Shown in pieces: positions 1,041 to 10,820 of a stretch of 28,155 nucleotides of DNA (position 1 is its first letter; every line of letters begins with the position of its first letter). The notes beneath the pieces are model-generated. The model did not search any database. It was not told the DNA's origin and saw only the letters and a program-made list of their open reading frames with translations. The position numbers and the translations under genes are program-made. The stretch spans positions 1-28,155 of the forward strand of contig JALRJT010000015.1 of NCBI GenBank assembly GCA_023254985.1, written 5' to 3'. The DNA comes from Ilumatobacteraceae bacterium (GTDB taxonomy: Bacteria > Actinomycetota > Acidimicrobiia > Acidimicrobiales > Ilumatobacteraceae).

Positions 1041-2437
1041 CTGCCGATTCCAATCACAAGTCCCATGTCGTCATCATTGGTGGCGGTATCACTGGCCTCG
1101 CTGCTGCGGTTGAGCTGGTCACCTCAAAACCTGGCGTTTCCATCACGATCCTCGAACGTAACGACCGCGTTGGGGGCGTGATCCAGGCTTCACCGTTTGC
1201 GGGACTCCCCTCAGTGGATGAGTCCGCCGATGCGTTTCTCCTTCGTTCACCCGCGGCACTCGAGCTCGCCAAGCTCGTTGGACTCGGCGATGATCTGGTC
1301 CATCCCTCCACTGGTGAGGCATACATCTGGCACGACGAACTCCAAGAAATTCCCGCCCACACCGTCCTCGGCGTTCCGGCATCGTTGCGATCGATCTGGT
1401 CAACCCCGATCTATTCACCGCGCGGAAAATTGCGCGCGTCGATCGAGCCGCTGTTGCCTCGGAGTCGAGGGCGGTCGAGTTCCTCGCTTGGTGAGGCGAT
1501 TCGTGCTCGATGCGGCGACGAAGTTCTCGAACGCGTCGTCGATCCGCTGGTTGGAGGGATTTATGCCACCGACACCGACGCGTTCAGCGTGCACAGCATG
1601 CCTCAACTCGACGAGCTCATCGCTGGTCGCGGCAGTTTGATGGCGGGGGCCCGCCACATGTTGTCGACACGCCACGATGCAGGACCGGTCTTTGGCGCTC
1701 CTCGCGGGGGAATGTCCTCGCTCGTCACCGCAACCGCCGACTTCGTTCGCTCTCGAGGTGCGACAATCCGACTCAACGCTCCCGTGAACGACATCCGACG
1801 GAATGATTCGGCTCAATACGTCGTCGTTGGAGCACACGGCGAACTCGTCGCCGACTCGGTGATCGTCGCAACTCCTGCCAAGCACTCCGCGCCATTCCTA
1901 CGCACGCTCAGTGTCGAGGCAAGTGAGATGCTTGCTTCGCGCGAGCACGCGAGCATCGTGATGGTGACGCTTGCGGTCCCGCGACAACAGTGGCCCGAGT
2001 GGCTGACTGGAAGTGGATACCTCGTCACGAAGCCAAAGCAGACTGCGATCACCGCAGCATCGTTCGCATCGAACAAGTGGGCACACCTTCGCGGTGATGA
2101 CGACGCCATGATCCTGCGGGTGTCTCTCGGTCGGGATGGGATGCCGATGCACCATCACGACGACGAAACGCTCGTTCGACTCGCACTGGCCGATCTCAAT
2201 TGGCACCTTGACTGCGACCTTGAGCCACATGCGCAACGCGTGACGAGATGGGTCGAATCGTTCCCGCAATACCGACCGGAACATGAAACGAACGTCGCGC
2301 GACTCGACTCTCTTATCCTGCGCGATGCTCCCGGAGTCATCCTCGCCGGAGCGAGTTACCGCGGAATCGGAATCCCGGCATGCATTGCCGATGGTCGACG
2401 CGCTGCGCGACTCATCGCGGACCGTGTGACGTCGTGA
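1037..2437 (+). CDS. hemY: HemY-type protoporphyrinogen/coproporphyrinogen III oxidase (CgoX)
   Basis: Start placed at ATG 1037 (ATGA overlap with hemH stop), not 755. VVIIGGGITGLAAA FAD motif, DPLVGGIYA, GSGYLV, ASNKW, LRVSLGR and C-terminal GASYRGIGIPACI. Confidence 0.93.
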   Translation: MTADSNHKSHVVIIGGGITGLAAAVELVTSKPGVSITILERNDRVGGVIQASPFAGLPSVDESADAFLLRSPAALELAKLVGLGDDLVHPSTGEAYIWHDELQEIPAHTVLGVPASLRSIWSTPIYSPRGKLRASIEPLLPRSRGRSSSSLGEAIRARCGDEVLERVVDPLVGGIYATDTDAFSVHSMPQLDELIAGRGSLMAGARHMLSTRHDAGPVFGAPRGGMSSLVTATADFVRSRGATIRLNAPVNDIRRNDSAQYVVVGAHGELVADSVIVATPAKHSAPFLRTLSVEASEMLASREHASIVMVTLAVPRQQWPEWLTGSGYLVTKPKQTAITAASFASNKWAHLRGDDDAMILRVSLGRDGMPMHHHDDETLVRLALADLNWHLDCDLEPHAQRVTRWVESFPQYRPEHETNVARLDSLILRDAPGVILAGASYRGIGIPACIADGRRAARLIADRVTS

Positions 2438-3891
2438 AGCGCAACGACCTCCCGACGCTTGCTGCAGCGAGCCTCACAGGGGCGCTCGTCGCGTTCGCGC
2501 TTCCCCCATGGGGATGGTGGCCACTCGCACTCATCGGAGTTGCGTTGTTCGTTCGCATCATGACGACGTCGGTTTCCTCTTCACCACGCGCTCGATTTGC
2601 GCTTGGTTTCGTCTTCGCCGCGTCGTGGTTTGCTCCTGGCATGGGCTGGATGTGGTTCCTCACCGCCCCTGGATACATCATCGCCGTCGTCCTCTTCTCC
2701 GCGTTCCACGGCTTCGCATCAATCGTCGGCACACGCGCACGGTTTCCAATCGTCGGTCTTGTCCTTGCTCACACGCTCGCCGAGACCTTACGCATGTCGT
2801 TCCCCTTTGGCGGAGTTCCACTCGCGTCATTGGCGATCGCAACTGCGTCGTCACCACTTGCGGAGCTCAGTCGTTTGAGTGGACCACTGTTCGTCACACT
2901 CGTCGTTTGGATCCTCGGCGCGATGATTGCGACGTCGACACGTGCGACATGGGCGCGCAATGTCGTCGCTGGACTGTCACTGGTTGCTGCGCTCCTCGTC
3001 ATCACACACGTCGGCCCGCACGCACACAACCTTGACATCTCCAAGCGAATTGCTGCCGTCCAGGGTGGTGGCCCTCAGGGAACGCTCGCGATCAATACGA
3101 ACCCACGCGACGTTGTCGAACGTCATCTTGCGGCCACGAAATCCATCGACGACAGCAGCCTTGACATGGTGATCTGGCCAGAGAACGTGATTGACGTTGA
3201 CGACTTCTATTCGAGCGTCGAGCGGGAAGAGATCGCCGCCGAAGCAAGTCGGCTCTCGGCACCGTTCGTCGTCGGCATCACCGAAGACGTCGATCGTCGA
3301 TACTTCACCAACGCTCAAGTCGTCGTCAATGTGGACGGAACACTCGCAGATCGTTACGACAAAGTGCGCAGGGTTCCGTTCGGTGAATTCGTTCCGCTGA
3401 GGGGATTGCTCGAGTCGCTGGGTGCGCCCGTGGACAGGATCCCTCGTGATGCCCAGGCTGGCGACACGCCAGCATCACTTCGCGTCGGCGACACGACTGC
3501 CGGAGTCGTCATCAGCTGGGAAGTGTTCTTCTCCGGACGCGCCAACGAAGGAGTCGAGCGCGACGCGACGTTCATCATCAATCCAACGAACGGGTCGAGT
3601 TACATGGGGACCATCCTGCAAACGCAACAGATCGCATCTTCTCGCTTGCGAGCGATCGAACAAGACCGATGGCTCGTGCAGGTTTCACCAACTGGATTCT
3701 CGGCATTCATCGAACCTGACGGCACGGTCCACGACCGCACAGGGGTCAGCGAGCAGCGTGTGATCGTGCGGGACGTCCCGCTCCGAACCGGACGGACGCT
3801 CTACTCACGTCTCGGCGACCTCCCACTCATCATCGGTATCGTTGCCGTGCTTCTTGCTCTGCTCTATTCGTCACGCAGGTCGCGCGCGTGA
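2434..3891 (+). CDS. lnt: Apolipoprotein N-acyltransferase (nucleophile position is Ser rather than Cys)
   Basis: GTG 2434 in GTGA overlap with hemY stop. Multiple TM segments, FPFGGVP, WPEN (Glu), YDKVRRVPFGE (Lys), ISWEVFF (ICYE-equivalent) and SSRLRAIE motifs. Confidence 0.9.
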   Translation: MKRNDLPTLAAASLTGALVAFALPPWGWWPLALIGVALFVRIMTTSVSSSPRARFALGFVFAASWFAPGMGWMWFLTAPGYIIAVVLFSAFHGFASIVGTRARFPIVGLVLAHTLAETLRMSFPFGGVPLASLAIATASSPLAELSRLSGPLFVTLVVWILGAMIATSTRATWARNVVAGLSLVAALLVITHVGPHAHNLDISKRIAAVQGGGPQGTLAINTNPRDVVERHLAATKSIDDSSLDMVIWPENVIDVDDFYSSVEREEIAAEASRLSAPFVVGITEDVDRRYFTNAQVVVNVDGTLADRYDKVRRVPFGEFVPLRGLLESLGAPVDRIPRDAQAGDTPASLRVGDTTAGVVISWEVFFSGRANEGVERDATFIINPTNGSSYMGTILQTQQIASSRLRAIEQDRWLVQVSPTGFSAFIEPDGTVHDRTGVSEQRVIVRDVPLRTGRTLYSRLGDLPLIIGIVAVLLALLYSSRRSRA

Positions 3892-4673
3892 CGATCACCA
3901 TCGCCAATGACGTCATCGCCCTGAGCGTCGAACCCTCTGCGGGCGGACGAATTTCGTCGTTGTTGATCGCGGGTCGAGAGCGACTCGTCGTCGATCGATC
4001 TCGTGGACCGATCGGTTGGGGTTGCTACGTGATGACTCCGTGGGCTGGCCGTATGCGACATGGCGAGCTCACGTTTAATGGATCGAACTACCACGTTCCG
4101 TGTGACTTGCCACCCCACGCAATTCATGGCACGGCCTATGAGGCGTCGTGGGTAGTCGAGGAAGTTACTTCGACCTCTCTCGTGCTCAGCTACCCGATCG
4201 GTTCGCCATGGCCATTCACAGGAAACGTACGCCACGAGATCTCACTCGATCACGACACGATCGGACTCACCCTCGAATTACACGCAGCAGACACCATGCC
4301 CGCACAAGTTGGATGGCATCCATGGTTCGTACGACCTGCACACGTCGAACATTCGTTCCGCGCGATGTACGTGAGAGGGAGCGATGGAATTCCGACGGGA
4401 GAACTCATCGAGCCCACTCGTGGTCCACACGATGACTGCTTCGTTGATGCACTCACGACGCCACAAGTCATCTTCGACGATGGAGTGTCGCTCGAATTAC
4501 ACAGTGATTGCTCCCACTGGGTGGTGTACGACGAACAGACACATGGACTGTGTATCGAACCGCAATCGGGGCCGCCGAATGGTGTCAACGATTCTCCGGA
4601 GATCGTGATGGCCCAGTCGTCACTTCTTCGCACCTTCGACCTGACGTGTGTTGGTTATCCACAGATAGGCTGA
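3888..4673 (+). CDS. Aldose 1-epimerase (galactose mutarotase-like) family protein
   Basis: GTGA overlap with lnt. GGRISSL, PWAGR, AIHG, GWHPWF and CIEPQSGPPN motifs, with the His/His/Glu mutarotase residues present. Confidence 0.85.
   Translation: MTITIANDVIALSVEPSAGGRISSLLIAGRERLVVDRSRGPIGWGCYVMTPWAGRMRHGELTFNGSNYHVPCDLPPHAIHGTAYEASWVVEEVTSTSLVLSYPIGSPWPFTGNVRHEISLDHDTIGLTLELHAADTMPAQVGWHPWFVRPAHVEHSFRAMYVRGSDGIPTGELIEPTRGPHDDCFVDALTTPQVIFDDGVSLELHSDCSHWVVYDEQTHGLCIEPQSGPPNGVNDSPEIVMAQSSLLRTFDLTCVGYPQIG
4666..4671 (+). promoter_or_regulatory. Putative -10 element (TAGGCT) for the glycosyltransferase operon
   Basis: TANNNT hexamer 9 nt before ATG 4681, no SD visible. Same hexamer type as before several other genes in the window. 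Confidence 0.4.
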
Positions 4674-4680
4674 CTTTCTT

Positions 4681-5970
4681 ATGCGGCCTCCGCTTGACCC
4701 CAACGGGCCGCTGCGTATCGCCTACCTGACATACCGAGGCAAGCCACACGTCGGCGGGCAGGGTGTGTACACCCGTCACCTCACCAAGGCCCTCGTCGAT
4801 CTTGGGCACCACGTCGAGGTCTACGCCGGTCAGCCTTACCCGATCCTTGACCCGCGCATCCCCCTGCACAAGTTGCCGAGTCTCGACATCTTCAACGACC
4901 TCTATCCAGGTCGCTTTCCTGCCTACTGGGAGATCAAGTCGTGGCCTGATGCAGTCGAAGTGTTGCAGTTCCTGAAGGGAACCTTTGGTGAGCCTCGTGC
5001 GTTCAGCATCCGCGCTCACCGAGCACTCGCCGCACGGGTCAACGACTTCGACCTCGTGCACGACAATCAATGCCTCGGATACGGGATTCAAGACATTGAA
5101 AAGTTGTTCCCCACGATCGTCACACTGCATCACCCAATTACCAAGGACCGCAAGCTCGAGATGGACCATGCCCCGAACTTCTGGAAGCGCAGGGCAATCG
5201 GTCGCTGGTACTCGTTCGTCAACATGCAGGGCAAGGTTGCCTCGAGCATGCCGCGCGTCGTCGTCGTGAGCGAGAACTCGATCAACGACATCCACGAGGA
5301 CATGAAGGTGTCGATGGATCGCATGCGACTGGTTCCGGTGGGGGTCGATCCGGATTTGTTCACCCCCAAGCCACACATTGCACGCAAGCCAGGGCACCTC
5401 ATCACGACCGCATCTGCCGATGTCGCACTGAAGGGTTTGTCATACCTCCTCGAAGCACTTGCCAAGTTGCGCACGGAGCGCGACGTCCACCTCACGATCA
5501 TCGGCAAGCCACGCGAAGGCGCGAGTATGGATCTGATTAGGTCACTCGGTCTCCTCGACTGCATTTCTTTCGTCTCGGGAGTCACCGACGAACGCATCGT
5601 CGAGCTGTATGCAGAGAGCGAGTTGGCCGTCGTGCCAAGTCTCTACGAAGGCTTCAGCCTCCCTGCGATCGAAGCAATGTCGACTGGTGTCTGCCTCGTC
5701 GCGACGACTGGTGGCGCACTGCCCGAGGTCACCGGGCGTGACGGTGACACGGTGTTGTCGTGCCCAACTGGAGACGCCGATGCGCTCGCCGCAGCCATTC
5801 GTCGAGGACTCGACGACGAAGAATTGCGCACTCGTGTCGGACAGGCGGGACGCCAACGTGTCGTCGAGCGCTGGAGTTGGCGCCACTGCGCCTCGCTCAC
5901 GGTCGATCAATACCGCGAAGTCCTCGCCATGCCCCACAATGTCGCCAAGTTGGCGCGCCGAAGGGGCTGA
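4681..5970 (+). CDS. manT: GT4 glycosyltransferase, ManT-like (MMP alpha-1,4-mannosyltransferase homologue)
   Basis: GGQGVYTRHL, GQPYP, VHDNQCLG, HHPIT, SADVALKG and PSLYEGFSLPAIE (EX7E) match my recollection of mycobacterial ManT. GT4 family is secure; donor specificity is inferred. Confidence 0.75.
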   Translation: MRPPLDPNGPLRIAYLTYRGKPHVGGQGVYTRHLTKALVDLGHHVEVYAGQPYPILDPRIPLHKLPSLDIFNDLYPGRFPAYWEIKSWPDAVEVLQFLKGTFGEPRAFSIRAHRALAARVNDFDLVHDNQCLGYGIQDIEKLFPTIVTLHHPITKDRKLEMDHAPNFWKRRAIGRWYSFVNMQGKVASSMPRVVVVSENSINDIHEDMKVSMDRMRLVPVGVDPDLFTPKPHIARKPGHLITTASADVALKGLSYLLEALAKLRTERDVHLTIIGKPREGASMDLIRSLGLLDCISFVSGVTDERIVELYAESELAVVPSLYEGFSLPAIEAMSTGVCLVATTGGALPEVTGRDGDTVLSCPTGDADALAAAIRRGLDDEELRTRVGQAGRQRVVERWSWRHCASLTVDQYREVLAMPHNVAKLARRRG

Positions 5971-5975
5971 TTTTC

Positions 5976-6710
5976 GTGCTGACGATTCGCTTCGACCAAC
6001 TTCGCCTGCGCAAGGGCGACCGAGTTCTCGATGCTGGTGCGGGCTTCGGGCGTCACGCGTTCGAGGCCGCGCGCCGTGGCGCCAAGGTGGTCGCCCTCGA
6101 CTACGCAGCAGACGAAGTCGTCTCCACGAGAGCAACCTTTGCGGCAATGTTCGAAGCGGGTGAGATTGAAGCGGAAAACTTGACGGGCGTCATGCGTGGC
6201 GATGCGACAAAGTTGCCCTTCCCCGACAACACGTTCGACGCGATCGTTACCTCTGAGGTGCTCGAACACATTCAAGACGACGTTCGTGCAATTGGCGAGT
6301 TCGCTCGTGTGCTCAAGCCAGGTGGAGTACTTGCTGCGACGGTTCCATCGTGGTTCCCGGAGAAGATCAACTGGATGCTGTCGGATGAGTACCACGCGCC
6401 ATTCGTACCTGGTGGGCATGTTCGTATCTACAGTTCGACTGAACTGAAGGCCAAGGTGCGGGCGAGCGGACTGACTATCCGAGCAGAGCACCGTGCTCAC
6501 GGACTGCACTCGCCGTATTGGTGGTTGCGGTGTGCGGTCGGCCCGGCACGTGAAGACAACCGGTTCGTAAACGCCTACAAGCGCTTTCTTGAATGGGACA
6601 TCATCGCTGCGCCGCGACTGACTCGAACCTTGGAGCGCATCCTCGCTCCCGTCCTTGGCAAGAGTTACATCGTGTACGCAACGAAACCATCTAGAGGATC
6701 GACGCAATGA
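5976..6710 (+). CDS. Class I SAM-dependent methyltransferase (candidate sugar 3-O-methyltransferase of an MMP-like cluster)
   Basis: GTG 5976 gives VLTIRFDQLRLRKGDRVLDAGAGFGRHA (SAM motif I). Also DATKLPFPDNTFD, SEVLEHI and GGHVRIY. Lies between the GT4 and hydrolase genes. Confidence 0.85.
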   Translation: MLTIRFDQLRLRKGDRVLDAGAGFGRHAFEAARRGAKVVALDYAADEVVSTRATFAAMFEAGEIEAENLTGVMRGDATKLPFPDNTFDAIVTSEVLEHIQDDVRAIGEFARVLKPGGVLAATVPSWFPEKINWMLSDEYHAPFVPGGHVRIYSSTELKAKVRASGLTIRAEHRAHGLHSPYWWLRCAVGPAREDNRFVNAYKRFLEWDIIAAPRLTRTLERILAPVLGKSYIVYATKPSRGSTQ

Positions 6711-7747
6711 CGATGCTCGGACTCCAGAACGATCGCCTTGAGGCCATCATCACGCACGATGAGTTGATGGCAACGGCGCGCTCAATTGCGTCACTGCAGT
6801 TGCCAAACGGCATGATCCCCTGGTTCGAAGGTGGTCATTGTGACCCGTGGAATCACGTCGAAACGGCGATGGCTCTCGACGTCATGGGCTTCCACAACGA
6901 GGCGCAGCGTGCATATCGCTGGCTCTCGCTCGCCCAGCGCAATGACGGCAGTTGGCACAACTATTACCTCCCCGACGACAGCCTTGAAGACGCCAAGCTC
7001 GACACCAACGTGTGTGCATACGTCGCCACTGGTGTCTGGCACCACTGGCTGTGCACCGACGATCTCGGATTCGTCGCCCTGATGTGGCCAACGGTGAAGC
7101 GTGCGCTCACGTGGGTCCTCGAGATGCGCAAGCCGGACGGGACGATCCTGTGGGCACGGGAAGTTGACAGCAAGCCCTGGGACTATGCGTTGTTGACCGG
7201 ATCGTCCTCGATTCGTCACGCTCTGCACTGTGGAGCGAACTTGGGTGCACTCCTCGGCGAGCATCAGCCCGCCTGGCGTACCGCTGCCGATGCGATCGAC
7301 ATCGCGATCAACACCAACCAAGGTGCCTTCGAGCCGAAAGACCGTTGGGCGATGGACTGGTACTACCCCGTCCTCACTGGTGCAACGACAGGAGTAGACG
7401 CCAAGGAGCGTCTGCGCTCCAAGTGGGACGAGTTCGTCATTGAGGGTCGAGGAGTTCGATGCGTCAACGACGAAGACTGGGTGACGGCTGCCGAAACCGC
7501 CGAGTGTTCTCTCGCCCACGCGGCTGCAGGCGACATCGAGCGCGCCAAAGAACTCCTGCTCTGGACACGCGCGCACCGCACGGAAAGCGGCGCATATTCG
7601 ACCGGGATCGTCTACCCGAACCGGATCGTGTTCCCCGCCGACGAGTGCAGCGCATACACCGGAGCGGCAATCATCTTGGCTGCTGACGCTATCGCCAACG
7701 CGACTCCGGCAAGCGCGATCTTCCTCGACTCAGCCGTCATCGACTAA
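6707..7747 (+). CDS. mmpH: (alpha/alpha)-barrel protein of the type often annotated prenyltransferase-like; probable MmpH-like glycoside hydrolase
   Basis: ATGA overlap with the methyltransferase. QLPNGMIPWFEGGHCDPWNHVETAMAL, LLTGSSS, MDWYYPVL, PWVT-like DWVTAAETAE and YTGAAIILAADA motifs, plus cluster context. No DDxD or polyprenyl DDxxD motif. Confidence 0.65.
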   Translation: MTMLGLQNDRLEAIITHDELMATARSIASLQLPNGMIPWFEGGHCDPWNHVETAMALDVMGFHNEAQRAYRWLSLAQRNDGSWHNYYLPDDSLEDAKLDTNVCAYVATGVWHHWLCTDDLGFVALMWPTVKRALTWVLEMRKPDGTILWAREVDSKPWDYALLTGSSSIRHALHCGANLGALLGEHQPAWRTAADAIDIAINTNQGAFEPKDRWAMDWYYPVLTGATTGVDAKERLRSKWDEFVIEGRGVRCVNDEDWVTAAETAECSLAHAAAGDIERAKELLLWTRAHRTESGAYSTGIVYPNRIVFPADECSAYTGAAIILAADAIANATPASAIFLDSAVID

Positions 7748-7752
7748 GCGAC

Positions 7753-8046
7753 ATGCGTTACGTTCCGCTTGAAGACGAGGCGGCTCGCGCGATGCCTGAG
7801 CTCGCATCGTGGACGGTTGCCGAAAAGACGATCTCGCGTGAGTTCAGGCTGCGAAATTTTGCCGTCATCGCCGACTTCATTCGCGATGTGATCGAGGCGT
7901 CAGAGCGACTCAATCATCACCCCGAGCTCGACATTCGCTATCCGAATGCAGTACTCGTTCGAATGAGCACCCATGTGGTTGGTGGACTCTCGAACGCGGA
8001 TGTCACTCTTGCGACCGAAATCGAATCGATTGCGCAGCGCTACTAG
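7753..8046 (+). CDS. phhB: Pterin-4-alpha-carbinolamine dehydratase family protein
   Basis: W..ISREF..RNF, ERLNHHPELDIRY, STHVVGGLSNAD..LA signature; 97 aa. Confidence 0.85.
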   Translation: MRYVPLEDEAARAMPELASWTVAEKTISREFRLRNFAVIADFIRDVIEASERLNHHPELDIRYPNAVLVRMSTHVVGGLSNADVTLATEIESIAQRY

Positions 8047-8054
8047 TCGAGCAG

Positions 8055-8690
8055 TTACGCGACTCGTTGCAGGACGCGCAACGAACCGGTAATCGAAATC
8101 TCGCGAAACTTTCCTGACTCAAGCGCGGGGAGATAGATCTCCTCATACGGGGCGAGTCCCCCATCTGCGGGATCCGTGAACACGTCATGGATGGCAAAAA
8201 TTCCGTCATGTGCGACGTGTTCGTGCCAGGCGGCGAAGTCTGCACGAGCGATCTCGCGACCATGCCCGCCGTCGATGAACAGAAACGAGATCTTCGATGC
8301 CCACGATGCGCCAAGTGACGCCGAATCGCCGACAACAGCACGCACTGTGTCGGTGAGCCCCGCGCGCGTCATCGTGTCGTTGAAGAACGGCAACGTATTG
8401 ATTCGACCCGTCGATGGATCCACCACGGTGTCATCGAACCACTCCCAGCCGGGTTGGTTCTCCTCCGAACCCCCATGGTGATCAACGGCATACAACGTGA
8501 CTCCGCACGACCGAGCTGCCGCCCCAACCCACACAGTGCTTCGGCCGCAATACGACCCGACCTCTACCATGTCGAGCGACGGAACGTTTCTTCCTGCGAG
8601 CATCGCCGCATCGAACAGGGCATCGCCCTCGTCTGACGGCATGAAACCTTTGGTTGCGAGGGCGACCTCGCGAAGCCCTGGGTCGATCAT
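8055..8690 (-). CDS. meT1: MeT1-like O-methyltransferase (Methyltransf_24 type; MMP 1-O-methyltransferase homologue)
   Basis: ATG 8690 overlaps the GH1 stop (ATGA). GFMPSDEG, EVGSYCGRST, DHHGGSEENQPGWE, FLFIDGGH and HDVFTDPADGG.AP match mycobacterial MeT1 as recalled. Confidence 0.75.
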   Translation of the reverse strand: MIDPGLREVALATKGFMPSDEGDALFDAAMLAGRNVPSLDMVEVGSYCGRSTVWVGAAARSCGVTLYAVDHHGGSEENQPGWEWFDDTVVDPSTGRINTLPFFNDTMTRAGLTDTVRAVVGDSASLGASWASKISFLFIDGGHGREIARADFAAWHEHVAHDGIFAIHDVFTDPADGGLAPYEEIYLPALESGKFREISITGSLRVLQRVA

Positions 8691-9904
8691 CCGTCGTTGA
8701 CGCCAAGAAGCGCGTTCGCTTTGGCAACGCGCCCGAGCCAATGTGCGCTCGGCTTCGGCGTGCGAACCTGTGTCGAGCGATCCACGGCGCACAGTCCGAA
8801 GATCGGCGCATATCCGCGCGTCCATTCGAAGTTGTCCATCAACGTCCAGTAGGTGTACCCGCGAATGTCGATCCCGTCGGCAATGCAGTTCAACACTCCG
8901 TCAAGTGCGTCATGGACGAATTCGATGCGCTCACGATCATCAGTTGCGGCAACACCGTTTTCCGTGACGATGAGCGGAACGTGGTCCGTTTGCTCCCACG
9001 CACGTCGAATGCACGCTTCGAGAGCCGACGGGCGGAATTCGTATCCCATGATCGTGAGCCGCATGTCGGGCGTCGGCTTCGTTCGACCGTCCTTGTCCAT
9101 GATCTCTCGCGTGTACGTCTGAACACCGAAGAAGTCGTCGCCCTTGGCGACCTCGAGAAAGGGGTCCTCGAGTCCGGCCCAGGCGCGATCTCGGTGTGCT
9201 GCCGCCTTTGCGAGCTCGTCTTCGTTCGAGCCGACGATTGTGTATTCCTGCATCGCCAGGGTAATTCCGAGCGGTGCGCTCGAAATCGACTTCACGGCGT
9301 CACGTGACTTGCGGTGAGCATCGCAGAAGACTTCATTCGCCTTCAGGCGCAAATCACGGTCCTTCTTCCCAGGCGGAAATTCACCGAGGAGATATCCGAT
9401 GGTTGAGACCATGTTCGGTTCATTGATCGTGCACCACATGCCAACCTCGTCACCGAGTCCTCGCGCGACCATGTCAGAGAATCGACCAAAGAGATCCGCC
9501 GTGGTGGCGTTGCCCCAACCACCCATTGCCGCCACCCAGCGTGGCGTCGTGAAGTGATGGAGTGTGACGACCGGAGTGATGCCGTTGTCTCGGCAACACT
9601 GCACCATCTTCTTGTAGTGGGTGATAGCTGCCTGGGAGAACTCGCCGTCTTCAGGCTCGATGCGACTCCACTCCACACTGAAGCGATACGTGTTGAAGCC
9701 CCACGACTTCATCATCGCGATGTCGTCGGGATACCGATTGAAGTGATCACACGTGTCTCCGCTTGGCTCCACACATGGACTTCCCGGCGTGTGCTCCCAA
9801 TCCCACCAGTCGTTGTTCCAATTATTTCCCTCGACCTGATGGGCGGCGGTCGCCGTTCCCCAAGTGAATCCCTGAGGAAATGCCTTCGATTTCTGTGTCG
9901 CCAT
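8687..9904 (-). CDS. Glycoside hydrolase family 1 (beta-glucosidase/beta-glycosidase)
   Basis: Start ATG 9904. FPQGFTWGTATAAHQVEG, YRFSVEWSRIEP, TLHHF, TINEP (acid/base), IVTENG (nucleophile) and DNFEW. Confidence 0.93.
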   Translation of the reverse strand: MATQKSKAFPQGFTWGTATAAHQVEGNNWNNDWWDWEHTPGSPCVEPSGDTCDHFNRYPDDIAMMKSWGFNTYRFSVEWSRIEPEDGEFSQAAITHYKKMVQCCRDNGITPVVTLHHFTTPRWVAAMGGWGNATTADLFGRFSDMVARGLGDEVGMWCTINEPNMVSTIGYLLGEFPPGKKDRDLRLKANEVFCDAHRKSRDAVKSISSAPLGITLAMQEYTIVGSNEDELAKAAAHRDRAWAGLEDPFLEVAKGDDFFGVQTYTREIMDKDGRTKPTPDMRLTIMGYEFRPSALEACIRRAWEQTDHVPLIVTENGVAATDDRERIEFVHDALDGVLNCIADGIDIRGYTYWTLMDNFEWTRGYAPIFGLCAVDRSTQVRTPKPSAHWLGRVAKANALLGVNDG

Positions 9905-9959: not shown

Positions 9960-10820
9960 GTGCCAAGCCCACTCGAAGATCTCGTCACACTTCTCGACTT
10001 GGAAGCAATCGAGGTCAACATCTTTCGTGGTCAATCGCCTGACGAGAATCGCCAGCGTGTGTTCGGCGGACAAGTAGCTGGTCAAGCACTCGTCGCAGCA
10101 ACTCGCACCATTGATGAACCCGACCGGATGGTGCACTCGTTGCACGCTTACTTCCTGCGCTCGGGCGACCCCGGCGTGCCGATCCTGTACGAAGTCGACC
10201 GACTTCGCGACGGTAAGAGTTTCTCTACTCGTCGAGTGGTAGCGATCCAGCACGGAAAGCCGATCTTCAATCTGCAGGCAAGTTTCCAGAAGATCGAGGC
10301 CGGTCTCGAATATCACATCACGATGGACCCGACGACTCCAACACCAGAGACGCTCCCTGATTTCAAAACGCGCATGGAGCCGTACAAGGAGCTCCTTGGC
10401 GACTGGTACGACAGACCTCGACCGATCGACCAGCGGTACGTCGACGGAGATCCGTTTTCACGAAAGGGAAATCCCCGTCCAGGTCAGCGCGTATGGATTC
10501 GTGCCGACGGCACTCTCCCCGACGATCCTGTGTTGCACTCCTGCATCCTCACCTATGCGAGCGACATGACCCTTCTCGACACCGCCCTCATGCCACACGG
10601 AATCGGGTGGTCCGACGGATCGGTGCAGATGGCAAGCCTCGACCATGCGATGTGGTTCCATCGGCCGTTCCGTGCGGACCAATGGATGCTGTATCAGCAG
10701 ACCTCGATCTCGACGTCCAACGCACGAGGTCTTGCCGAGGGGCACATCTTCACTCAGGACGGCCTTCTGGCAGTGACCGTCGTCCAGGAGGGACTCACCA
10801 GACTCGTTGCAAAGTCCTGA
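9960..10820 (+). CDS. tesB: Acyl-CoA thioesterase II
   Basis: RVFGGQVAGQAL, HSLHAYFLR, RDGKSFSTRRV, LTYASDMTLL, ASLDHAMWFHRPFRAD.W.LY and VQEGL. Confidence 0.95.
   Translation: MPSPLEDLVTLLDLEAIEVNIFRGQSPDENRQRVFGGQVAGQALVAATRTIDEPDRMVHSLHAYFLRSGDPGVPILYEVDRLRDGKSFSTRRVVAIQHGKPIFNLQASFQKIEAGLEYHITMDPTTPTPETLPDFKTRMEPYKELLGDWYDRPRPIDQRYVDGDPFSRKGNPRPGQRVWIRADGTLPDDPVLHSCILTYASDMTLLDTALMPHGIGWSDGSVQMASLDHAMWFHRPFRADQWMLYQQTSISTSNARGLAEGHIFTQDGLLAVTVVQEGLTRLVAKS

Follow-up and report, generated by a model that had tools for sequence, protein, structure and literature searches.

The DNA analysed here (the window: 28,155 nucleotides) constitutes the entire contig C94 of a metagenome-assembled genome (MAG; 1.06 Mb in 213 contigs, 55% complete), and between positions 4681 and 8690 it carries the four genes ManT, MeT3, MmpH and MeT1. 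We hold with good confidence that these are true orthologues of the mycobacterial genes for methylmannose polysaccharide (MMP) and that they most likely make a cytoplasmic MMP-type oligomer of alpha-(1->4)-linked 3-O-methylmannose. MMP has been regarded as typical of nontuberculous mycobacteria, apart from a single early report from Streptomyces, and what it does in the cell is still under debate. The pathway itself is known; what is new is its taxonomic reach, an MmpH site specific to the order Acidimicrobiales and a link to the thioesterase gene tesB. The original prediction, made from the sequence alone, had placed a GT4 glycosyltransferase with an EX7E motif, a methyltransferase, an alpha/alpha barrel protein and a second methyltransferase with DHHxGSEE and IDGGH motifs within 4 kb, and all four are found intact where it had placed them, among five intact genes in a span of 4010 bp. 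The four are as follows.

4681-5970, plus strand: ManT orthologue, GT4 / GT-B alpha-(1->4)-mannosyltransferase, 429 aa (Pfam Glycos_transf_1 and Glyco_transf_4; PDB 7qsg).
5976-6710, plus strand: pMeT3 orthologue (MeT3 below), class I S-adenosylmethionine (SAM) methyltransferase, putative 3-O-methyltransferase, 244 aa (Pfam Methyltransf_11, E 8e-22; reciprocal hit).
6707-7747, plus strand: MmpH orthologue, (alpha/alpha)6-barrel endo-alpha-(1->4)-mannosidase, 346 aa (PDB 7qsj).
8055-8690, minus strand: MeT1 orthologue, Methyltransf_24 protein, 1-O-methyltransferase capping the reducing end, 211 aa (PDB 6g7d/6g80/6h40).

Comparison with proteins of known structure identified three of the four. 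ManT matched 7qsg with an E value of 7.6e-117, the next chain being at 4.7e-19; the 7qsg entry, which bears an automatically assigned name, holds the ManT structure that Maranha et al. 2023 reported for M. hassiacum (PMC9883506). The sole match of MmpH was 7qsj, titled 'Methylmannose polysaccharide hydrolase (MmpH)' (E 2.5e-93), and the sole match of MeT1 was the M. hassiacum MeT1 in entries 6g7d, 6g80 and 6h40 (E 5.3e-58). Family libraries returned for MmpH only a sub-threshold match to SQHop_cyclase_N (Pfam) and a GH15-like NCBIfam match. That automated annotation would hide the gene set, as had been anticipated, is apparent from the names given to homologues ('prenyltransferase', 'hypothetical protein' or 'GH15 family glucan-1,4-alpha-glucosidase'); thousands of database proteins named prenyltransferase, GH15 or hypothetical are MmpH homologues.

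As a mycobacterial reference we used G139, a Mycobacteriaceae genome from an even sample of 401 genomes of the phylum. A search for the motif DPWDHVE among 150 cluster representatives had yielded no mycobacterial representative, and since the MmpH of G139 scores 707 bits against 7qsj, G139 is a close relative of M. hassiacum. Reciprocal searches, which the original prediction had put forward as a check, were run for all four genes and bore it out: each is the reciprocal best hit of its counterpart, with gaps to the second match of 40-95 orders of magnitude. For ManT the forward search gave 1.4e-111 (next 6e-17) and the reverse search 7e-112 (next 1.6e-16). MeT3 found its best match inside the MMP cluster of G139 at 3.8e-75 (next 1.4e-10), and the G139 protein returned to the genome of the window at 5.6e-76 (next 3.3e-7), while MeT1 gave 2.6e-56 forward and 1.9e-57 in reverse, with no second match in either genome. 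Between the window and L002, the closest locus among the matches listed ('uncultured Acidimicrobium sp.'), gene order is the same and protein identity is 86-93% for ManT, MeT3 and MmpH and 72% for MeT1. The ratio of nonsynonymous to synonymous substitution (dN/dS) against L002 is 0.065-0.089 for the four genes (0.065 for ManT), and the genes are thus under purifying selection.

The residues on which catalysis depends in the mycobacterial enzymes are conserved. In M. hassiacum ManT, activity is abolished in the K240A and E321A variants and severely reduced in E313A, D293 contacts the guanine and G15 belongs to the glycine loop (PMC9883506). Counted in the alignment and in M. hassiacum numbering, the window ManT retains G15, K240, D293, E313, G314, F315, L317 and E321; its EX7E motif spans E323-E331 (EGFSLPAIE), and the HHPIT motif taken to hold H142, a position matched by motif and uncounted, is also conserved. 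The MeT1 motifs DHHGGSEE, at residue 70, and IDGGH, at residue 139, belong to the DHHxGSEE, IDGGH and IHDVF blocks that align with the M. hassiacum enzyme. For MmpH, the site residues described in section 11 of PMC9883506 were mapped onto the window protein and 33 homologues, giving 20 Acidimicrobiales sequences and 14 others. The putative acid D47 (D46 in the window) and base E262 (E263 in the window) are invariant in all 34 sequences, as are W49, N101, M215, Y219 and E265, and T163 is kept in the window protein. The proposal that the four genes are the MMP set thus stands, on the matches to 7qsg, 7qsj and 6g7d, the conserved catalytic residues and a gene order described below.

In the pathway that these genes would encode, MmpH would cut existing chains to give oligomannoside primers, ManT would extend the primers with GDP-mannose, MeT3 would methylate O-3, and MeT1 would methylate O-1 at the reducing end. 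The resulting helical, hydrophobic polymer would sequester long-chain acyl-CoA or fatty acids. These steps follow the mechanism demonstrated in M. hassiacum and M. smegmatis (PMC9883506) and are applied here by analogy.

Several points weigh against assigning MMP synthesis to the window. Identity to the mycobacterial proteins is only 43-51%. The function of pMeT3 is only putative even in mycobacteria. GDP-mannose as the ManT donor is argued for solely by the conserved D293 and the EGFSLPAIE loop, and the MAG is 55% complete. More generally, for Acidimicrobiia we infer the enzyme activities, the sugar donor, the product and the role in lipid handling from the genes. The MmpH subsites differ from those of mycobacteria, with D50 replaced by N49, F102 by V102 and W315 by Y317 in the window protein; across the Acidimicrobiales sequences the changes D50N, F102V and W315Y are found in 20/20, 19/20 and 20/20, respectively, and the D50A variant of M. 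hassiacum MmpH is nearly inactive (PMC9883506, section 11). The RNA record comes from relatives, at about 85% nucleotide identity. The sequence of the window itself was found in no RNA run searched. In four riverine RNA libraries, contigs about 83-90% identical, in pieces of 250-1400 bases, cover the regions of ManT, MeT3, MmpH, MeT1 and the two neighbouring genes GH1 and tesB described below, and in 3 of the 4 libraries they skip the dehydratase gene that lies between MmpH and MeT1. This is suggestive of expression of the relatives' versions, in libraries that may hold contaminating DNA.

The order-wide changes in MmpH may reflect a somewhat different substrate, and they are one ground for supposing that the product is a chemical variant of the canonical mycobacterial MMP, the 1-O-methyl, 3-O-methyl alpha-(1->4)-mannan of 11-14 units; the variant might differ in chain length, methylation pattern or acyl and acetyl groups, as in S. 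griseus. Also in favour of a different polymer are the lineage-specific neighbours of the cluster (an Lnt-like acyltransferase gene, an epimerase-like gene, GH1 and tesB) and the precedent of S. griseus, whose ManT is similarly distant from the M. hassiacum enzyme (53%) and whose product is modified (PMC9883506). Set against this, the core enzymes are all four still there with their catalytic residues, no additional transferase accompanies the cluster everywhere, and Asn occupies MmpH position 50 in 6 of the 14 sequences from outside Acidimicrobiales. Asn50 is thus tolerated in the MmpH family and need not alter specificity, and as it is common elsewhere in the family, D50, F102 and W315 are site-lining residues rather than defining features of the family. 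We regard a chemically distinct polymer as a real but minority possibility, roughly one chance in three, and keep an MMP-type 3-O-methylmannose oligomer as the preferred product.

One Acidimicrobiia genome has two MmpH-type sets: at locus L106 (G403:C3:696958-700581), a second, divergent pair of MmpH (41%) and MeT3 (38%) adjoins an unlinked MeT1.

Gene order was compared in loci collected by scanning one genome per GTDB species with an MmpH alignment, which gave at least 600 stretches, 598 of them confirmed relatives; the 80 loci referred to below are the best 80 of at least 598 confirmed MmpH relatives. A further 20 loci, the MmpH regions of genomes from the phylum sample, represent nine other actinobacterial families and two genomes of the window's own family. 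In the window, ManT, MeT3 and MmpH are followed by a convergent MeT1, with a pterin dehydratase gene inserted. The MeT3 start is most likely the GTG at 5976, 6 nt past the ManT stop, rather than 5760, and the MeT3 stop overlaps the ATG of MmpH (ATGA, 6707-6710). Among the best 80 loci, 73 had ManT and 77 had MeT3, without exception colinear with MmpH and upstream of it, and the misses lay at contig ends; the survey of synteny across Acidimicrobiia that had been suggested with the original prediction thus came out in its favour. The order ManT, MeT3, MmpH was identical in 20/20 of the further loci.

MeT1 lies downstream on the opposite strand in 50 of the best 80 loci. In five genomes with long flanks and no linked MeT1, including that of Desertimonas flava, a MeT1 orthologue of 56-65% identity is encoded elsewhere. 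Where MeT1 was in view in the further loci it was convergent, on the opposite strand, in all but L088, where it is on the same strand, and in three Mycobacteriaceae loci both order and orientation equal those of the window. As the convergent position is found in all of these loci but L088, Mycobacteriaceae included, the opposite-strand placement of MeT1 is ancestral rather than the result of a local rearrangement. Every locus or genome that was checked for the full four-gene set had it. Three features of the window had gone unmentioned in the original prediction: the pterin dehydratase gene, the position of MeT1 on the opposite strand, and an ATGA overlap between MeT1 and GH1.

The two central genes are also joined in another way, as fused MeT3-MmpH proteins of about 595 aa occur in many Ilumatobacteraceae relatives (P0051, P0055, P0057 and others), in open frames of 570-660 aa. 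These fusions tie the two functions together. In two genomes of the same family, a single TGA lies within the open frame that matches MmpH (G147:C1:819566-820561 and G461:C3:466955-467950); it may mark the MeT3/MmpH boundary or a frameshift.

These data bear on whether the grouping could be a chance neighbourhood of common families, in which a GT4 enzyme, methyltransferases and an alpha/alpha barrel protein would have unrelated functions. The generic Pfam and NCBIfam names, which are all that the libraries offer for any of the four proteins, would suit such an account. It is refuted by synteny and orthology, and we give it next to no credence: the reciprocal best hits stand 40 or more orders of magnitude clear of second matches, 100 loci from many families share the gene order, and MeT3 and MmpH are fused in relatives. 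The recurrence of the three-gene order in 73-77 of the best 80 loci and in 20/20 further loci means that the grouping is not due to chance.

The names of the nearest genomes agree with the earlier assignment of the window to Acidimicrobiia. Almost all of the best 80 loci come from MAGs named Ilumatobacteraceae, Acidimicrobiales, Acidimicrobiia or Ilumatobacter, and the one cultured strain among them, Desertimonas flava SYSU D60003 (Ilumatobacteraceae, Acidimicrobiales at NCBI), has all four genes, with ManT-MeT3-MmpH together on one contig and MeT1 on a second. In Ilumatobacter, the genomes found to have the genes were MAGs and not those of cultured strains. Metagenomes from aquaculture, lagoon, estuary, marine, crustacean-associated and freshwater sources contained 80-95% of the words sampled from the DNA of the window, and relatives of the same genus have genomes of about 2 Mb. 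An uncultured, aquatic Acidimicrobiales bacterium of the class Acidimicrobiia is thus supported as the host. Acidimicrobiales are abundant in lakes, rivers, estuaries and coastal waters.

Six MAGs carry titles that clash with their content ('Acidobacteria bacterium', 'Bifidobacterium breve' or 'uncultured Bifidobacterium sp.'; L009, L010, L026, L036, L043 and L059). Their MmpH proteins are 62-67% identical to that of the window, they share its gene order, and L009, the sole one of the six in the tree described below, nests within Acidimicrobiales; the titles look like labelling errors.

The distribution of MmpH was surveyed in the phylum sample and in 250 genomes of the class, all at least 90% complete. 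It was found in 68 of the 401 phylum genomes, with 15 of 26 in family f14 (two unpublished f14 genomes, G001 and G048, enter only these two tallies), and in 146 of the 250 class genomes. In Acidimicrobiales its presence is nearly universal: 76 of 77 high-quality genomes have it, some of them 1.3-2 Mb in size. In other orders of the class it is all or none by family, being found in 17/17 genomes of f13 and 16/16 of f96, and in 0/35 of f8, 0/18 of f11 and 0/12 of f93, whose genomes are of 1.1 Mb. MmpH identity to the window falls from 73-76% within the genus to 58-66% in the family, mostly 47-56% in the order and 43-48% beyond. ManT, MeT3 and MmpH were also concatenated for a maximum-likelihood tree of 34 rows, which placed every taxonomic group on one side of a branch apart from f76, whose two rows are paraphyletic around Mycobacteriaceae, and split Acidimicrobiales from all other groups with a value of 86 in the Shimodaira-Hasegawa-like approximate likelihood-ratio test (SH-aLRT). 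The tree follows taxonomy, and together with the distribution, the identities and the dN/dS values this indicates an inheritance that is old, mainly vertical and under purifying selection.

A recent transfer from mycobacteria was considered and rejected, because identity drops stepwise with taxonomic distance and the tree follows taxonomy.

On either side of the four genes are neighbours that are less widely shared.

2380-3891, plus strand: Lnt-like apolipoprotein N-acyltransferase (TIGR00546 lnt, E 1.3e-57).
3888-4673, plus strand: aldose-1-epimerase-like gene (Aldose_epim, E 8e-18).
7753-8046, plus strand: pterin-4a-carbinolamine dehydratase gene, between MmpH and MeT1 (Pfam Pterin_4a, E 8e-20).
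8687-9904, minus strand: GH1 beta-glycosidase, translationally coupled upstream of MeT1 (Pfam Glyco_hydro_1, E 1.8e-86).
9960-10820, plus strand: tesB, acyl-CoA thioesterase II, divergent from the GH1-MeT1 unit (NCBIfam tesB, E 1e-84 to 1e-88).

The Lnt-like and epimerase-like genes overlap by 4 nt and are separated from ManT by a 7-nt gap. Each lies upstream of ManT in 41 of the best 80 loci, and a role in the pathway, such as acylation of the polymer or handling of sugars, is conceivable. The pterin dehydratase gene occupies this place only in the window and in its nearest relative, L002 (1 of the best 80 loci), and so stands outside the conserved set.

The ATG of MeT1 (8690-8688) overlaps the stop of GH1 (ATGA). 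Together with the hydrolytic nature of MmpH, the co-transcription of a GH1 glycosidase with MeT1 in this genome could be taken to mean that the genes scavenge or break down environmental methylated mannans, with MmpH and GH1 as the hydrolases. We consider this very improbable: a retaining GT4 transferase and a pair of SAM methyltransferases point to biosynthesis, the N-termini of MmpH and GH1 are, by eye, unlike export signals, and MMP synthesis in M. smegmatis itself requires MmpH (PMC9883506). Furthermore, GH1 lies between MeT1 and tesB in only 7 of the best 80 loci. The same arrangement is found in L100, of the same genus, in L079, and in L097, and as L097 belongs to a different family of the order, the MeT1-GH1-tesB arrangement may go back a long way and have been lost often, instead of being a recent insertion.

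The gene beyond GH1 in the window is tesB. Of the 50 loci in which MeT1 is visible, 44 have tesB upstream of MeT1 and divergent from it, and 4 of the 6 exceptions have too little flank. The gap between the two genes is 56-2287 bp, which leaves room for zero or one gene, and tesB stands at the same place in L097, from another Acidimicrobiales family. None of 15 loci fetched from outside Acidimicrobiales had tesB beside MeT1. The pairing fits the proposed binding of acyl-CoA by MMP, and as the related genomes are non-independent we treat the linkage as a lead only.

Taken together, it is plausible, at slightly less than even odds, that an MMP-type mannan is an ancient, vertically inherited core trait of Acidimicrobiales, aquatic lineages with genomes of 1.3-2 Mb included, with an order-specific MmpH site, possibly a distinct polymer, and a pairing of MeT1 with tesB. 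An MMP-type polymer is probably far more widespread than has been described, and the near-universal presence of MmpH in Acidimicrobiales moves the question of MMP function beyond mycobacteria. If the ancient-trait reading is borne out, acyl-CoA buffering by polymethylated polysaccharides would be general among actinobacteria and no mycobacterial speciality. The MeT1-tesB pairing is a fresh sign, from the genomes, that acyl-CoA metabolism may be involved. Desertimonas flava is a cultured, non-pathogenic carrier in which the polymer could be sought.

Three known systems invite comparison. The mycobacterial 6-O-methylglucose lipopolysaccharide (MGLP) is likewise a cytoplasmic polymethylated polysaccharide proposed to bind acyl-CoA (PMC9883506, PMC2674218), but it is based on glucose, primed on glucosylglycerate and made by other enzymes, and none of the four window proteins matches the MGLP pathway better than the MMP enzymes. 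A methylglucose polymer is also what Nocardia otitidiscaviarum makes; this species is 'not known to synthesize MMP' (PMC9883506), which contradicts, for N. otitidiscaviarum, the statement in the original prediction that MMP is known chemically from Nocardia.

Streptomyces griseus, which lacks mycolic acids, is already known to make a polymethylated mannan. Its acetylated methylmannose polysaccharide (AMMP) shows that this gene set can yield such a mannan outside the mycolic-acid bacteria, and differs from the product proposed here in that it carries acetyl groups. Family f32, with genomes of 7-10 Mb and probably Streptomyces, has the ManT-MeT3-MmpH order of the window with MeT1 further away or out of view, and groups in the tree with Actinomycetes families, apart from Acidimicrobiales. 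A full-text search found no paper linking methylmannose to Acidimicrobiia. The supplementary alignments of Maranha et al., in garbled machine-read text, include the labels Acidimicrobi-, Iamia and Gammaproteobacteria, and the main text is without discussion of an Acidimicrobiia cluster (PMC9883506).

The closest likeness is to the mycobacterial MMP cluster: the set of four genes, their order and the convergent MeT1 are shared, and the catalytic residues of ManT and MmpH are conserved. The window departs from it in sequence, including the three MmpH subsite changes, in the inserted pterin dehydratase gene, in the coupling of MeT1 to GH1 back to back with tesB, and in the Lnt-like and epimerase-like genes upstream. 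The hosts differ as well, as the mycobacterial cluster belongs to mycolate-producing actinomycetes, whereas that of the window belongs to an aquatic bacterium of the order Acidimicrobiales.

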